DNA from: a virus
Direction: 5' to 3' (one strand)
Virus record (IMG/VR): IMGVR_UViG_3300043395_004689
Span: 39,159-103,158 of that record
DNA: 64,000 nt
Shown here: in pieces, positions 38,482 through 50,396 of the stretch
Layout of the letters: each line of letters begins with the position of its first letter
Numbering within the stretch: position 1 is the first letter of the stretch
Notes under the pieces: model-generated
Databases searched by the model: none
Seen by the model: only the letters and a program-made list of their open reading frames with translations
What the model was told of the DNA's origin: nothing
Made by a program: the position numbers and the translations under genes

Positions 38482-41400
38482 ATGGCAATTAATGCATCTT
38501 CGGGAGGACAACTACAAGGCGGAACAGGTGGTGGCGGAGGCCTCACAGAAGAAGATGTTCAAGACATTGTAGCCGAACAAATTGAAGTAGGTAACGATCT
38601 CAGCATCGGCCTACAAACAAGCTACGACGACACTACGGGCAAGCTTACAATCAGCCTGGCTGGTGGTGGCACTGGTGGTGGAACAGCAGGCAGCATTTCA
38701 GTTAAAGAAAATGGCACAGCCCGCGGTACTGCTGGTGTGCTAAACTTTGTTGGGCCAAATGTAAGTGTTACCAATAATGTGGCCACTATCACAGGCGGAC
38801 TAGATTCTATTGCGGTTTATGAAAACACCAGCAATCGTGGAAATTTTACCAGCATTAACTTTGTCAGCGGAGCCACTGTAACAGTTGACAACGGTACTGC
38901 AAATGTCAGCATCGCTGGGGGCGGTGGCAGCTACACATTGCCAACAGCCAGCGGAAGCACACTGGGTGGTATTAAGATTGGTACAGGTCTAAGCATCGAC
39001 GGCAACGGAGTTGTAAGTGCAACTGGCGGTGGCAGCTACACATTGCCAACAGCTAGCACCGGTACACTTGGTGGTGTAAAGGTCGATGGTACAACAATTA
39101 CCATCAATGGCAGCGGTGTTATCAGTGCCGTAGGCGGTGGTACAGGCGGTGGTATTAGTATCAGCGATGTCAGCACATATCTAACAAACAACGGATACAC
39201 TACAACAACTTATGTTGATGGTCAGATTAGCAACTTAATCAATGGCGCACCTGGTGCGTTGAATACATTGAATGAATTGGCTGCGGCGATTGCCAGCAAT
39301 CCAAACTTTGCCACAGACTTAACAACATCGCTAGCTGGTAAGCTGAATATCAGCGGTGGTACAATGACCGGTGCGCTAACACTGGCTGGTGCTCCTACAT
39401 CCGATCTACAAGCATCAACTAAGAAATATGTTGATGACAGTATTGCAGCTATTCCTGCGCCAACAACAGCGTTGGCAAGTTTAACAGATGTTGATGTTGC
39501 TTCTAAGAGTTCTGGTCAGATTTTAGGCTGGAATGGTACAAAATGGGTAGCGGTAAACAACAGTGGTACAAAAGGTGATACTGGCGAAGCCGGTCCTCAA
39601 GGTCCAGCTGGTCTTAGCATTACTTCTGCTACAGTTAGCGTAAGTGGTCGCTTGTTGGTTACTCTTAGCAATGGCTCTGTGGTAGATGCTGGTAACGTTG
39701 CTGGTGTTAGCTCAGCCACAGTTAATGGCAGCGGACAATTAGTATTAACCAAGCAAGATGGTTCGACTATCAATGCAGGTAGTGTAATAGGACCCACAGG
39801 TGCAACTGGTGCTACTGGTGCTCAGGGACCACAGGGTGACACAGGTGACACTGGCGTTGGAATTGCCGGGGCCGTAGTCGATGGCAGCGGCCGTTTAATT
39901 ATTACTCTCACTGACGGAAGCACAGTTGATGCAGGCAGTTCAGTGGGTCCTCAGGGACCACAAGGTAGCACAGGTGCCACAGGTGCCACAGGTGCCACAG
40001 GACCTGCTGGTAATGGAATATTCAGTGCAGTAGTAGATGGCGATGGCAATCTACAAATTACTCTAGACGATGCTACTTCAATCAATGCTGGTAGCGTGAT
40101 TGGTCCACAGGGACCACAAGGCAGTCAAGGCCCTGCGGGTCGTAGCATTGCCAACAGCGGTGTTGTAGTTGATAGCAGTGGTTATTTACAAATCACATTA
40201 ACCGACGGCAGCACAATCAATGCTGGTTATGTTGTTGGTCCACAAGGTAGCACAGGTGCTACAGGTGCCAAGGGCGATAAAGGTGACACAGGTGCTACAG
40301 GTGCTACAGGTGCTACAGGTGCTACAGGCACAAGTTACACAGTCAACGGCTCAAGCGGTAGCGTACAGATATATGGCTTATCAAGCACAACACAATCTGG
40401 CTATAACTTTGAAGTTGATTTATCTAACAAAGCCAACAAACTTACAACAGCCAGAAATATCAGCTTAACTGGTAAAGTCACTGGTTTGACCAGCTTTGAT
40501 GGCAGCGGCAACGTTAGCATTACAACAGCACTTAGTGGTGTAACAACCAGCGATGTAACTGAAGGTACTAGACTTTACTATAGTGATGGTAGAGCAAGAC
40601 TAGCAATAAGTTCATCTAGCGATAGCAGCATCAGCAGTTTGATCAGTTACGACGACACCACTGGTGTTATCAAGTATCGTGCTAACACTAGCTACATCAC
40701 TGAAGGCAGCAACCTATATTTTACAAACACAAGAGCTGATGCTCGCGCAGATACACGAATTGCTGCCAGCAGTATTAACGCACTCAGCGATGTGGATACA
40801 GTAACAACTGCACCAACCAATGGTCAGGTCTTGACCTGGACTGGTAGTGCATGGACACCTAGCTCTGTAAGTGGAGGTAGCGGTGCTGTATCGAGTGTTA
40901 ACTCTAAGACAGGTGCAGTTGTCCTAAGTACAGATGATGTCACAGAAGGTACAAGTAACTTGTACTTTACTAACTCTCGCTGGGACACAAGATTATCTTC
41001 TAAGTCAACAGATAACCTAAGCGAAGGTACTACAAACAAGTACTTCAGCAACACACTTGCTCGCAATGCTTTGGCTGCTGGTACAGGTTTGAGCTACAAC
41101 AGTTCAACTGGTACATTCAGTATCAATACCAGCACAGACAATGTCACAGAAGGTAGTACAAATCTTTACTACACCAGTGGAAGATTTGATACTCGACTAG
41201 GTCAAAGCAATCTTAACCAACTTGCTGATGTAGCCGACACTACGCCAACAACAGGACAGGCTCTTGTATGGAATGGTAGTGCTTGGTCGCCAAGCACAGT
41301 CAGTGGCGGTGGTTCAGGTGGTACTGGTTCAACCAGTGGTGTGTTCCGTGCCGCAGTTCAAGTTGAATATGATGCATCAGGTAACCTATCAAGTGTAAGT

Positions 41401-46970: not shown

Positions 46971-47044
46971 ATATGATTGTACTGCTAACTTGATTGAGTT
47001 TAAGTACATGTGAAGACGGTTTTAATTATACAAGGAAGAATGTC

Positions 47045-47425
47045 ATGGAAACCTTAGAACCAAAAAATTATGTAAGAGTATGTGTTGAAAGAGAACTTAC
47101 AAATACAGAATTTGATCAGATCACTGAAATCATCGACGATGAAATTGGTGACATAGTAGGCAGCGACGAAGTCATTGAACACATCAATGAACTTGGTATG
47201 GTCTGCTATCTTTTTGAACTAGCCACAGACATTCACAACAGCGAGCAAGGAACCATTGCTGGTGACCTAATCAGCTACGAAATAGATCAAGTACTGCCTG
47301 AGGGACTTCAATGGGAATTTGAAGCCAGCACCGAGGATGTGGAACTTGATGTTGCTGACAATGTTTCTGACGAAGAAATCCGCGAAGCTGCTGTAAAACA
47401 CTATCAAAACCTACTAAAGGGTTAA
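47045..47425 (+). CDS. Acidic hypothetical protein
   Basis: AGGA SD before ATG 47045. Confidence 0.6.
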   Translation: METLEPKNYVRVCVERELTNTEFDQITEIIDDEIGDIVGSDEVIEHINELGMVCYLFELATDIHNSEQGTIAGDLISYEIDQVLPEGLQWEFEASTEDVELDVADNVSDEEIREAAVKHYQNLLKG

Positions 47426-47902
47426 ATGAGATATACGCCTGCGGCCCTGAGGTTATTGGGTTATAACCTCAGAAGTCGGCACTGGAACGACTTTGCCGCA
47501 CATACCATGGAAACATGGTTCAAGTTCAGTGCCGACCATACCTTCAGTGATTTTGCATGGTACTCGACCAAACAACACCGAAACATCATGAATGTCACAC
47601 ACGGCGGTGCCTTGGTCACCTACATGGATTATGCCATGGCTGCTAGTATTTGGGATATCACTGCTGGCGGAAATGCATGGACTGTGTCCTTAAACAATGA
47701 ATTTGTCAAGCCTGCTAGAATCAATCGTTGGCTGTTTGCACAGGTAAAAACTGTGGCTCTAGGAGAACTCATTGAGCTTGAAGGAACTATCAGAGCCAAT
47801 GATCCAGATGGTATGCTCGTAATGCGAAGTTTTGGCAAATTTACTCAGCCTAAACGCATTGACATAGAAAATAATTCTGCTATAATTGCGTATAGAGAAT
47901 AA
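47426..47902 (+). CDS. PaaI family hotdog thioesterase
   Basis: HRN...THGGAL.TYMD, TVSLN.EFVKP. Confidence 0.85.
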   Translation: MRYTPAALRLLGYNLRSRHWNDFAAHTMETWFKFSADHTFSDFAWYSTKQHRNIMNVTHGGALVTYMDYAMAASIWDITAGGNAWTVSLNNEFVKPARINRWLFAQVKTVALGELIELEGTIRANDPDGMLVMRSFGKFTQPKRIDIENNSAIIAYRE

Positions 47903-47925
47903 TTCAACCCATTAAGGATTACCCA

Positions 47926-48510
47926 ATGAAGATCAATCTACGCAAGGCCAGTGTTGTTCAAGACCAAATTCAAGCAGAGCTCAAGTTGCTGGGCTCTGAA
48001 AAGACTGCAATCAATGTCAGCATTTTTGACACCGACATTGTCGGTAAGCTAGATGTGCAATTGGCCAAGATCCGTGAAACCAATCACCGTGCAGGTCGCC
48101 TGCTGGAAGCCAACTCTTATCTCAGAGCCACTGTGGCTTTGAAGAATGCCGAAGCAGGTATCACTGGGTATCTTGCTGAAGATGCCATGTTGGCCGCGGC
48201 TGAGGCTCGCACTCGTGCTGTCACTGAACTTGAAGTTCGCCCAAACATTGAGTCGTTGACTCAAGAAATGGAAGCGCGGCGTGCCAGTGCCAGTGCTGTT
48301 GATCGTAACAGCATCTACGGTGGCCGGTCCTATGATATGAATGTTGATGTGGCAACACAAGAATATGTCGACGAGGCTCGTCGTAGTTTGGAAACAATTC
48401 GCCGGCGCCGTCGCAAGATCAAGGATGAGATGGTCACCATCAATGTTCGTACCGAGTTTGAAGTACCCGAAAAGGTAGCACTTGTGCTTACCGAACTTGG
48501 GCTAGACTAA
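47926..48510 (+). CDS. Helical coiled-coil protein (possibly DIP1984-like)
   Basis: Own promoter TTGACA(47859)..TATAAT(47881); heptad helices; C-terminal INVRTE. Confidence 0.6.
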   Translation: MKINLRKASVVQDQIQAELKLLGSEKTAINVSIFDTDIVGKLDVQLAKIRETNHRAGRLLEANSYLRATVALKNAEAGITGYLAEDAMLAAAEARTRAVTELEVRPNIESLTQEMEARRASASAVDRNSIYGGRSYDMNVDVATQEYVDEARRSLETIRRRRRKIKDEMVTINVRTEFEVPEKVALVLTELGLD

Positions 48511-48513
48511 GCC

Positions 48514-48726
48514 GCCACACTTGGTCCAGAGGAATAATGGAAACACCTGCATCCTACAATGATGCAAAGCTTATAGATGGTCTTGAAAACCCGTCTGACT
48601 CAGCCTTGTTTAGGTATCAAAAAATTATATTGATATTTGATGGTATACCTAAGCAACAAGCACATGTTTGATGTTCAATGGTTGATATTCCATGTTTGTT
48701 AGTTTCCGTTACCTCTGCTTCGTGGC
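48514..48726 (+). ncRNA. Candidate ~213-nt multibranch RNA with heptamer repeats
   Basis: 5'/3' closing helices GCCAC/GTGGC, CAGAGG/CCTCTG, TAATGGAAAC/GTTTCCGTTA; three internal hairpins; five ATRNTYN units at 48664-48698. Confidence 0.7.
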
Positions 48727-49195
48727 ACTATTCTTAGGCGTTTGCGCTACTGCACAAGCCCACGATAAAAACTATCGTGGGTTTATTATTGGCTTCACTG
48801 GTCTCAACGAAGCCTTTGATGATTCTGCCTTTACTACCTTTGCTCGCGATCGGCGATTGATTCCTATTAAACTGTCTTGGACACAGGAAAGTGTGGCTCT
48901 AACACTGATACGCAACTCGCAAGGCTACTATGAACTTTATGGTTTTAGCAAGGGTGCTGAAACTGTTGGCGCTGTAATAAAAAAGAAAGTTGGTAGGCCT
49001 CCGGGCTGTGCAACCACAGTTGGCGCTTACAGGACCACCAATGTTGACTTCCGCCTGTACAAGATTCCTTTTATCAATTACTTTGACGCATCTGGTCGAG
49101 GTAACACTGGACCTGGAATATTCATTGACAATGTAGACCACTCTAGTATACAATCGCATATAAATCGTTTTGACTATGAGTGCAAGCAACAATGA
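48692..49195 (+). CDS. Secreted hypothetical protein, minimal alpha/beta-hydrolase-like
   Basis: Signal peptide AQA; GFSKG nucleophile-elbow-like motif. Confidence 0.55.
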   Translation: MFVSFRYLCFVALFLGVCATAQAHDKNYRGFIIGFTGLNEAFDDSAFTTFARDRRLIPIKLSWTQESVALTLIRNSQGYYELYGFSKGAETVGAVIKKKVGRPPGCATTVGAYRTTNVDFRLYKIPFINYFDASGRGNTGPGIFIDNVDHSSIQSHINRFDYECKQQ

Positions 49196-49383
49196 ATAGC
49201 ATAGAAAAAATTTGGGCAAGAGCAACAGGGCACCTTATGGGTCATACCGATGAGGATCGCCCCGATGTGCCAATTCTAACTATTCGTGAAGCCCGCATTG
49301 CACTTTTTTTAAAAACATTTTGGGTAGTGATACATGTGATTACTTGTTTCTTTATCATTGCTAATGTTATCCATCACTGGTAG
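49192..49383 (+). CDS. Small membrane protein
   Basis: IWARATGHLMG; C-terminal TM. Confidence 0.6.
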   Translation: MNSIEKIWARATGHLMGHTDEDRPDVPILTIREARIALFLKTFWVVIHVITCFFIIANVIHHW

Positions 49384-49391
49384 GAGCCATT

Positions 49392-50396
49392 ATGGGACGA
49401 ATTGGATTTTGCTGTAAGTTTGTAGATCCTCATCCAAAAAAGATTTTTGAAAATGTTGAAGGCTACAATACTGGTGCAACCACTGTGGCTTGGCTTAACC
49501 GCCAAAGTCGAGATGTTGCTGAGGAAAAGCTGTGGAACCTCATGGTCCAAAACATTGAGGCCACTCGCAAACTAGTTGAAAAGGTAGGAGCATTAGATGA
49601 ACATCTACGTATGGTACGGCTTTCTAGCGATATCCTTCCTATGTATACTGAGCCTAGTTGGTCTTACTATTGGCGCAGGCCTGAGGTGCTTCAATATTGC
49701 GAAAAGCACTTTCAACAAGTGGGAGATACCGCTCGGCAACTTGGCGTTAGGGTGTCTTTTCATCCTGGTCAGTTTTGTGTGTTGGCTTCTGCTTCACCCG
49801 ATATTGTCAATCGTTCTATAGAGGAGTTTGAATATCATGCAGACATGGTACGCTGGATGGGATACGGAAAGTCGTTCCAGGACTTTAAGATTAATGTACA
49901 TATATCTGGACGACTGGGGCCAAGCGGCATTAGGGAAGCATATAAGCGTCTTAGTGTAGAAGCACAAAATTGTATTACTATTGAAAATGAAGAAATATCA
50001 CATAATCTTGAAACCTGTCTCAGCCTTGCTGACCTATGCCCAATCGTGTTGGACATTCATCACCACTGGATTAATTCGGGAGAGTATATCTCTGTGGACG
50101 ATGACCGTGTTAAAAGGGTTATTGACAGCTGGCGTGGTGTTCGTCCTGCTATGCATTATAGTGTTAGCCGCGAAGACCTACTCGCAGATCATGCCCGAGA
50201 TCAGCTCCCATCCATGGCCCATCTCTTGGAAGTAGGCTATAAGAAACAACAGCTACGAGCACATTCGGATTTCTACTGGAATTCCGCAGTCAATGAATGG
50301 GCCGCAACCTTTAGTCCCCATTTTGATATCCAATGCGAAAGCAAGGCAAAGAATCTGGCCAGTCGGCGATTTGCAAAGGAAATGAATCTAGGCTAA
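49392..50396 (+). CDS. uvsE: UV-damage endonuclease UvsE/UvdE
   Basis: RLSSD, SFHPGQF, IENEE, LDIHHHW, HYS, AHSD, ESKAK. Confidence 0.92.
   Translation: MGRIGFCCKFVDPHPKKIFENVEGYNTGATTVAWLNRQSRDVAEEKLWNLMVQNIEATRKLVEKVGALDEHLRMVRLSSDILPMYTEPSWSYYWRRPEVLQYCEKHFQQVGDTARQLGVRVSFHPGQFCVLASASPDIVNRSIEEFEYHADMVRWMGYGKSFQDFKINVHISGRLGPSGIREAYKRLSVEAQNCITIENEEISHNLETCLSLADLCPIVLDIHHHWINSGEYISVDDDRVKRVIDSWRGVRPAMHYSVSREDLLADHARDQLPSMAHLLEVGYKKQQLRAHSDFYWNSAVNEWAATFSPHFDIQCESKAKNLASRRFAKEMNLG

Follow-up and report, generated by a model that had tools for sequence, protein, structure and literature searches.

A small helical-protein gene and an adjoining UUG-repeat RNA as a probable protein–RNA unit of giant phages

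Introduction

What is the role of a folded stretch of about 220 nucleotides (nt) that follows the gene of a small helical protein in a phage genome? This question is raised by a 64,000-nt stretch of viral DNA (hereafter, the window, to which all coordinates refer) that spans positions 39,159 to 103,158 of the IMG/VR virus record IMGVR_UViG_3300043395_004689. The gene encodes a protein of 194 amino acids (aa), and the stretch behind it folds into a multi-helix domain that exposes a row of evenly spaced UUG triplets. We find that the folded stretch is almost certainly a genuine RNA and that the gene and the RNA probably make up an undescribed protein–RNA particle. Comparison of related loci leads us to lean toward a two-part unit, in which the small helical protein has the folded RNA as its cognate partner.

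Results

A structured RNA domain overlaps the stop codon of the gene

The gene and the elements of the RNA are arranged in the window as follows.

47926..48510, + strand: gene of the 194-aa helical protein; N-terminus MKINLRKA and C-terminus ELGLD invariant
48505..48726, + strand: whole structured RNA domain, ~222 nt, delineated by fold z score, covariation and covariance model R1
48505..48526, + strand: hairpin P0, GACUAAG / CUUGGUC (48505-11/48520-26), containing the stop codon; 8-nt loop
48514..48726, + strand: helix P1, 48514-18 (GCCAC) with 48722-26 (GUGGC), 98% paired
48527..48717, + strand: helix P2, 48527-32 (CAGAGG) with 48712-17 (CCUCUG), 4/6 pairs changed on both sides
48535..48711, + strand: helix P3, 10 base pairs (bp), 48535-44 with 48702-11, 8/10 pairs changed on both sides, 94% paired
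48548..48566, + strand: hairpin A, 6-7 bp, variable in sequence, both-side changes in 5/7 pairs
48569..48604, + strand: hairpin B, conserved loop CUUGAAAAC, helices 6-7 of the covariation count
48603..48661, + strand: hairpin C, long stem, 9/12 pairs changed on both sides, helices 8-9 of the covariation count
48664..48698, + strand: single-stranded row of five 7-nt units, AUGUUUG AUGUUCA AUGGUUG AUAUUCC AUGUUUG in the window

The 220 nt after the stop codon fold with an energy of -63.3 kcal/mol, compared with a shuffle mean of -47.1 kcal/mol (z = -3.9), and none of 200 shuffles is as stable. The minimum-energy fold contains the helices and hairpins that a first-pass annotation of the window had named, and both its three closing helices (P1, P2 and P3) and its three hairpins (48548-66, ~48569-48604 and ~48603-48661) are present in the conserved structure.

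Covariation was counted on a plain MAFFT alignment of 44 distinct sequences with a structure of 55 pairs in nine helices, and the controls comprised structures whose pairing partners were slid by 1-3 columns and 500 shuffles. Paired cells account for 90.2% in the true register versus 30-43% in the slid controls, and changes on both sides affect 37 of the 55 pairs versus 7-20. The covariation score is 0.281, compared with at most 0.10 in the controls, and no shuffle reaches any of the observed measures. The structure is thus conserved through compensatory change behind the homologous genes. Hairpin A differs in its stem from relative to relative, and its covariation is visible even in this plain alignment; the closing helices also covary, with AU replaced by GC in five sequences and CG by AU in one for P1. 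G-U cells (117) outnumber A-C cells (68), which favours an RNA read from the + strand. Covariance model R1 of the freshwater RNA finds a single copy in the 103-kb record (E 3.5e-44).

Where does the RNA begin? It had been annotated to start 3 nt past the stop codon; its start instead lies in the last codons of the gene, with P0 spanning the stop. All cells of P0 are paired. CG is replaced by UA in two sequences, and the change of the stop codon from UAA to UGA is offset by a U-to-C change in the 3' arm in seven sequences. The loop of P0 doubles as the 5' arm of P1, which closes the domain with an H-type pseudoknot; the loop lengths of this pseudoknot (2 nt and 1 nt) would be sterically ordinary.

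Could the gap contain no functional RNA at all, being either coding or a set of repeats that act as DNA iterons? A 44-aa open reading frame (ORF, 48537-48671) does lie in the gap with a GAGGA box 6 nt upstream, and heptad TTG rows exist elsewhere as plain DNA repeats. However, only the window and a near-identical copy of it keep this ORF open, and a coding role was rejected since the relatives carry stops. A mini-ORF of 11-12 codons through the repeats was likewise rejected, given an AUA start in many relatives and a stop in locus L008 (L numbers denote individual loci). Neither coding nor iterons explain the compensatory changes in 37 pairs, long-range pairs included, and we consider this reading of the gap extremely improbable.

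The RNA exposes a UUG triplet at a fixed register

The family consensus of the row is CAU-GUUUGAU-nUUAGAU-GUUUGAU-nUUUGCU-GUUUGAC, built from (A/G)UUUGAU-type units, and G recurs at exactly each seventh base through the five units. UUUG is conserved at 93-100% in units 1, 3, 4 and 5, the spacers fall to 36%, and the RNAalifold consensus contains no conserved pairing within 48664-98. Thus, the heptad run that was first annotated there is real. The same annotation had placed three further degenerate units at 48627-46. Two of these are found at 48630-48642 in the apical part of hairpin C as UUGAU(G/A)UUUGAUG, 100% conserved, and the third is part of the stem. Units 2 and 4 of the window read UUCA and UUCC, where the family has UUAG/UUUG. 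The 7-nt periodicity holds behind the homologues, in exact register within the clade and as period 7 or 8 in about half of the distant loci.

Rows of another kind were also encountered. Many small (4-6 kb) viral contigs, among them L293, L296, L308, L311, L314, L316, L345, L355, L364 and L398, carry several nnGCUUG heptad rows each (e.g. GGAGCTTGATGCTTGCGGCTTGAAGCTTG), spaced 800-1200 nt apart, without a homologue of the 194-aa protein. These rows are a separate, unexplained phenomenon.

The RNA accompanies the gene through deep divergence

Protein-guided searches yielded 27 loci in IMG/VR and 49 loci in JGI metagenomes, and the element is present in every clade locus that reaches beyond the stop codon of the gene. 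A search with an RNA-only pattern returned further copies, and the gene stands alongside in all of them. The recurring arrangement is a small gene of the DIP1984 fold (described below) that adjoins, on the same strand, a stem-closed RNA with 7-nt units and one conserved triplet. The pair is carried by hundreds of giant phages, including cultured phages of Salmonella, Klebsiella and Cronobacter, and the protein family is essentially absent from bacterial genomes, where one contig of a metagenome-assembled genome was the only occurrence.

Distant homologues (23-30% identity) are accompanied by UUG rows with a period of 7 or 8, and these are confined to the gene strand. TTG rows of at least four units occur on that strand in 51 of 110 distant loci (45 at period 7, eight at period 8 and two at both); periods 5, 6, 9 and 10 gave none there, and the opposite strand gave none with a period of 7 or 8. 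Model R1 gave 12 weak matches in the distant loci, 11 of which lie directly behind the stop codon of the homologue. A second clade (19 sequences) repeats the same plan of a closing helix, a hairpin with the CUUGAAAAC loop and a UUG row, and this loop motif recurs in distant clades. Most distant loci are located within long transfer RNA (tRNA) arrays, with the next tRNA often only 2-10 nt past the closing helix.

The order of the two parts is variable. In L187-L199, the RNA precedes the gene with its row ~57 nt before the ATG; in L190, the RNA lies ahead of the gene with a TATAAT box of its own; and in L201/L207, it is found behind an inserted ORF, 600 nt from the gene. Such variation in order indicates that the RNA is a module of its own.

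This variation bears on the idea that the RNA serves the messenger RNA (mRNA) of the protein purely in cis, as a stabiliser, a processing or termination element or an autoregulatory operator similar to that of T4 gene 32 mRNA, and has no function as a free particle. The domain begins inside the stop codon, and the inclusion of that codon in P0 implies that translation termination and the folding of P0 and P1 compete on one molecule. An mRNA cut from a tRNA array would need end protection, the position of the row in L187-L199 is operator-like, and a U-run follows the closing helix in some relatives (GCGGCCUUUUUU in L011 and CACAAUCUUUUUG in GAP32). However, most clades have the RNA 3' of the gene, some have it 5', and elsewhere an inserted ORF puts 600 nt between the two; a single cis mechanism is hard to square with this variable placement. 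A stabiliser would also need less than three conserved hairpins whose loops are conserved as well. A purely cis-acting role is accordingly quite unlikely in our estimation.

Does the RNA need the protein? It might instead act without it, by titrating or decoying a host protein that binds U/G-rich single strands (a cold-shock-type or S1-type protein or an RNase), and the protein would then be merely co-expressed or act elsewhere. Sponge RNAs such as CsrB carry multi-site single-stranded repeats, the host-type promoter points to early expression, and the relatives of the RNA lie among other stable RNAs (tRNAs and GOLLD). The repeat nonetheless differs by clade, as UUUGAU at 7 nt, AUUGC at 7 nt and GGUUGC at 8 nt, and such clade-specific flanks and periods are better suited to a co-evolving phage partner than to one conserved host protein. 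Moreover, the RNA stays linked to the gene where protein identity has fallen to 23-30% and where the order of the genes has changed. The decoy model is therefore an unlikely competitor of the two-part unit.

Several distant loci have other non-coding features near the gene. L241, L257, L262, L267, L273 and L283 share a conserved non-coding stretch of ~300 nt after the stop codon, which starts with CAGACCCCG and keeps a CUUGAAAA-type hairpin loop. This stretch, in which no strict UUG row and no Rfam match were found, may be a divergent form of the UUG RNA. On a 360-kb phage contig, a GOLLD RNA (L243:2946-3409; 205 bits, E 1.6e-56) with a tRNA inside lies ~900 nt downstream of a distant homologue. 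Matches to the freshwater-2 motif at 45.6-45.9 bits, against a gathering threshold of 49.9 bits, are found a few hundred nt downstream of distant homologues at L249:2871-2943 and L186:2538-2608.

The protein is predicted to adopt a DIP1984-like helical fold and to dimerize

What kind of protein accompanies the RNA? At least 162 homologues were found, and an exhaustive search gave 250 clusters (50% identity) of same-length relatives, down to 23% identity. The 194-aa protein of the window has no match in Pfam, NCBIfam, PHROGs or PADLOC, and a sequence search of the PDB returned no relative. Nine to ten distant homologues were also without a match in Pfam/NCBIfam at E up to 1, and some distant homologues match phrog_25230, which is annotated as 'unknown function'.

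The AlphaFold (AF2) model has a predicted local distance difference test (pLDDT) score of 83.6 and consists of a helical bundle with short terminal strands. Two aligners rank the same structure first, 3KDQ (DIP1984 of Corynebacterium diphtheriae). Foldseek does so with a probability of 0.97 and E 0.09, and VIA-align with Z 11.2 and a root-mean-square deviation of 4.6 A over 143 of 152 chain residues (model residues 2-179), a Z of 11 being within the range that helical bundles attain by arrangement alone; the next VIA-align row has Z 9.5. The sequence models of this family, PF20935 (DUF6847) and NF038048, do not match the protein, and with a limit of E 10, PF20935 finds nothing anywhere in the 103-kb record. 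We therefore refer to the protein as having the DIP1984 fold and not as a member of the family. The initially suggested likeness to a DIP1984-like family holds at the level of the fold and fails at the level of the sequence models. A literature search turned up no relevant work on DIP1984 and none on DUF6847, and a feature search of the Atlas listed a DUF6847-bearing viral cluster.

When two copies were modelled, a symmetric dimer was predicted with an ipSAE (interface score) of 0.71, compared with 0.13 for the best control. Three runs share at least 97% of their contacts, and the pLDDT of the partner is at least 87. The mark that the dimer passes was calibrated on solved structures, being attained by 20 of 30 homo-pairs and by one of 23 single chains, and resemblance to the multi-chain 3KDQ crystal may account for part of this result. 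The predicted interface comprises residues 19-147 and so leaves free the arginine-rich helix IRRRRRKIKDEM at residues about 157-168. The TRAP-like ring that was first suggested is not supported by this helical bundle with its predicted symmetric dimer.

Cultured jumbo phages carry the module

Distant homologues occur in 23 cultured jumbo phage records. The carriers include GAP32, CBB, BF, the pEa_SNUABM phages, XbC2 and Kaldavass, as well as fHe-Yen9-03/04, fENko-Kae01, Munch, 7t3, SE_PL and PHA46. In seven of the cultured records, the homologue is followed by ~250-330 nt without an annotated RNA, and a small opposite-strand ORF has been called there in two. This stretch contains a hairpin that covaries and UUG triplets in a row of period 8; UUG rows are present in GAP32, BF, Munch and fENko-Kae01. 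It also contains a 12-bp closing helix, which is compensated in five versions, with eight of its 12 pairs changed on both sides. The RNAs of the enterobacterial phages were not reached by R1 at E up to 1; their kinship with the freshwater RNA is suggested by a common architecture, by the UUG row and by the 3' motif UGCUUCG..GCAC, which both possess.

At the protein level, ENKO_435, the homologue of Klebsiella phage fENko-Kae01, has been detected by liquid chromatography–tandem mass spectrometry in a lysate preparation (PMC11218385). Cronobacter GAP32, Pectobacterium CBB, Serratia BF, Salmonella Munch and 7t3 and Klebsiella fENko-Kae01 all have tractable hosts, and the presence of the module in such phages makes it testable at once by ordinary genetics and biochemistry.

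In GAP32-like phages (L157:3373-3490, L158:3343-3457), a conserved TATAAAAATG box that resembles a T4 late promoter element lies behind the RNA. After this box comes an unusually long 'tRNA-Thr(UGU)' of 82-85 nt, and a pseudo-tRNA is annotated there in Serratia BF.

Promoter, neighbouring genes and RNA-library coverage

The source record is a 103-kb IMG/VR virus sequence that is estimated to represent about one third of the full genome. Gene direction in the window is almost wholly + strand, and guanine–cytosine content is even. Contigs that bear homologues of the 194-aa gene reach 332 kb, and the source is thus taken to be a giant (jumbo) freshwater phage. The window itself has no tRNA gene according to ARAGORN, whereas most distant homologues sit within tRNA arrays. 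Two further features flank the unit.

47859..47886, + strand: sigma-70-type promoter TTGACA-16-TG-n-TATAAT, which drives the gene-plus-RNA unit
48692..49195, + strand: gene of a 167-aa signal-peptide protein; the 3' arms of the RNA make up the first 35 nt of the gene

The promoter matches all 12 consensus positions and has the TG extension of an extended -10 element. TTGAC(A/G)-16/17-TGnTATAAT/TATACT is kept in the relatives at an equal distance from the ATG, which bears out the first-pass assignment of a sigma-70 promoter of its own to the gene.

The 167-aa gene starts inside heptad unit 5, and its signal peptide (MFVSFRYLCFVALFLGVCATAQA) is encoded by the 3' arms of the RNA. No Shine–Dalgarno box precedes it, and its product has no match in Pfam, PHROG or PADLOC. 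Only the nearest relatives, L107-L109, have it, conserved at 80-86% from the first residue onward, and on this comparison it reads as a lineage-specific insertion between the RNA and the gene of a 67-aa membrane protein. In relatives that lack it, the gap from the RNA end to the ATG of the membrane-protein gene is 8-20 nt, with no visible Shine–Dalgarno sequence. A second near-perfect sigma-70 promoter, TTGACA-18-TACAAT at 49125-49154, stands before the 67-aa membrane-protein gene and a UvdE UV-endonuclease gene, which together span 49180-50396.

Contigs from the RNA libraries of four studies cover 47916-48770 and little else of a 2-kb stretch, the exception being a 151-nt piece in the upstream gene. 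Three of these contigs, from three studies, span the stop codon and so join the gene and the RNA; one of them is 541 nt long and ends at 48725. The contig ends (48725 in X1 and 48770 in X4) and the uncovered parts of the 2-kb stretch are no evidence for the ends of the RNA.

The RNA matches no catalogued family

In a search of Rfam 15 with positions 47000-50000 at E up to 10, only chance rows were returned, with 14.7-22.6 bits compared with gathering thresholds of 33-55. Rfam likewise has nothing over the homologous RNAs of GAP32/Yen9-04 or over those of 19 distant loci. The initial view that the RNA is no tRNA, transfer-messenger RNA (tmRNA) or Y RNA is supported by ARAGORN, which finds no tRNA or tmRNA gene and on which the tRNA/tmRNA identity was rejected, and by Rfam 15, which gives no match to any family, including Y RNA/YrlA, 6S, GOLLD and the freshwater motifs. 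Two further identities were discarded. A tmRNA-like tag is incompatible with the lack of a T-arm, the lack of a G-U pair at position 3 of P1 and the broken frame in L008. Mimicry of an anticodon loop (GUUUGAU resembling the Gln-UUG loop) suits the freshwater clade alone, since the clades with AUUGC or GGUUGC do not fit it. The 2023 catalogue of 8,495 IMG/VR candidate RNAs (PMC10690425) may list the RNA without a name.

Discussion

How might the two parts work together? We favour the RNA as the partner of the protein because their linkage survives deep divergence and changes in gene order and because the flank and period of the repeat co-vary with the protein clade. The gene and the stable folded RNA would be produced on a single early transcript. 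The closing stem would hold the UUG row as a loop, and the protein could bind the periodic UUG units side by side, with one site per 7-8 nt, as a row of dimers on the looped-out single strand, yielding a defined ribonucleoprotein. That one protein subunit occupies each repeat unit is conjecture. In the distant relatives, cleavage of the next tRNA by RNase P would free the 3' end of the RNA.

The location of most distant relatives in tRNA arrays suggests that the particle most likely acts in the RNA or tRNA economy of the phage. It might process, protect or control the transcript of the tRNA array, or it might serve in counter-defence. Tentatively, and as a possibility that we would not yet rely on, DIP1984-fold proteins and stem-closed repeat RNAs may form a widespread undescribed class of phage ribonucleoproteins, in which a helical dimer reads a triplet at a 7-8-nt register within the tRNA operons of giant phages and by which the phage controls or protects its own tRNA supply, for example against host defences directed at tRNA.

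Several observations weigh against a partnership of protein and RNA. The arginine-rich patch is weaker in distant clades. The subclade of the window has a degenerate row in which UUG is retained only in units 1, 3 and 5, and a strict UUG row is missing in about half of the distant loci. A coding gene lies directly past the stop codon in L239, L253 and L290, and the L241-type clade has a different-looking RNA after the gene. At least 119 matches to five TTG at period 7 exist collection-wide, mostly in unrelated repeats, and the protein accompanies 3 of the 119 among the matches listed, so that the UUG row alone is not diagnostic. Finally, the RNA-library contigs show no strand, ends, level or discrete RNA and may derive from DNA carry-over.

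If a true particle is formed, it would represent a new kind of phage ribonucleoprotein whose RNA code is simple and periodic, with one triplet repeated at a fixed spacing that shifts between clades. The DIP1984/DUF6847 fold would thereby gain its first function, and the puzzling stable RNAs of phage tRNA clusters would be joined by one that has a protein partner.

How does the unit compare with known systems? The crystal structure 3KDQ of DIP1984/DUF6847 has been available since 2009, and the function of that protein is unknown. The phage protein resembles it over the whole length of the helical-bundle fold, including the short N- and C-terminal strands, and differs in being ~40 residues longer and in having no sequence-model match.

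Among regulators that read repeated triplets, TRAP is an 11-mer beta-sandwich ring that binds trp leader RNA with 11 (G/U)AG triplets at a spacing of 5-6 nt, so that 2-3 nt separate neighbouring triplets. Common to the two systems is the notion that each evenly spaced triplet offers one site for binding. In contrast to TRAP, the phage protein is modelled as a helical bundle for which a two-fold dimer is predicted, its RNA presents UUG with 4-5-nt spacers, and there is no sign of attenuation; the all-helical model and the lack of a match to the TrpBP Pfam model place it outside the TRAP type. HutP of Bacillus subtilis is an oligomeric reader that binds UAG triplets with four bases between them in hut mRNA, where two sets of three such triplets precede a terminator. 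A triplet at each seventh base of single-stranded RNA is common to HutP and the phage unit. However, the phage triplet is UUG in 5-7 units, enterobacterial phages have a period of 8, the protein is helical, and the RNA is a closed multi-hairpin domain and not a terminator/antiterminator leader. We found no alternative terminator or antiterminator fold and no match of the protein to the HutP Pfam model, and only the 7-nt spacing links the unit to the HutP type.

The operator of T4 gene 32 mRNA consists of a 5' pseudoknot followed by UUAAA/UAAA repeats, which gp32 coats cooperatively at ~7 nt per monomer. The phage unit likewise combines a pseudoknot and an unstructured repeat row on the mRNA of the protein itself in a phage context. 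It differs from the gene 32 system in that the row is mostly 3' of the gene, the protein is not a single-stranded DNA binder of the oligonucleotide/oligosaccharide-binding (OB) fold, and three further conserved hairpins are present.

Stable small RNAs of phage tRNA clusters are represented by RNAs C and D of T4 and by GOLLD, which occurs beside tRNAs; their function is unknown. Distant relatives of the UUG RNA are similarly found inside tRNA arrays, with their 3' end abutting the next tRNA. Unlike the UUG RNA, RNAs C and D and GOLLD have no dedicated partner gene, and they share no sequence or structure match with it.

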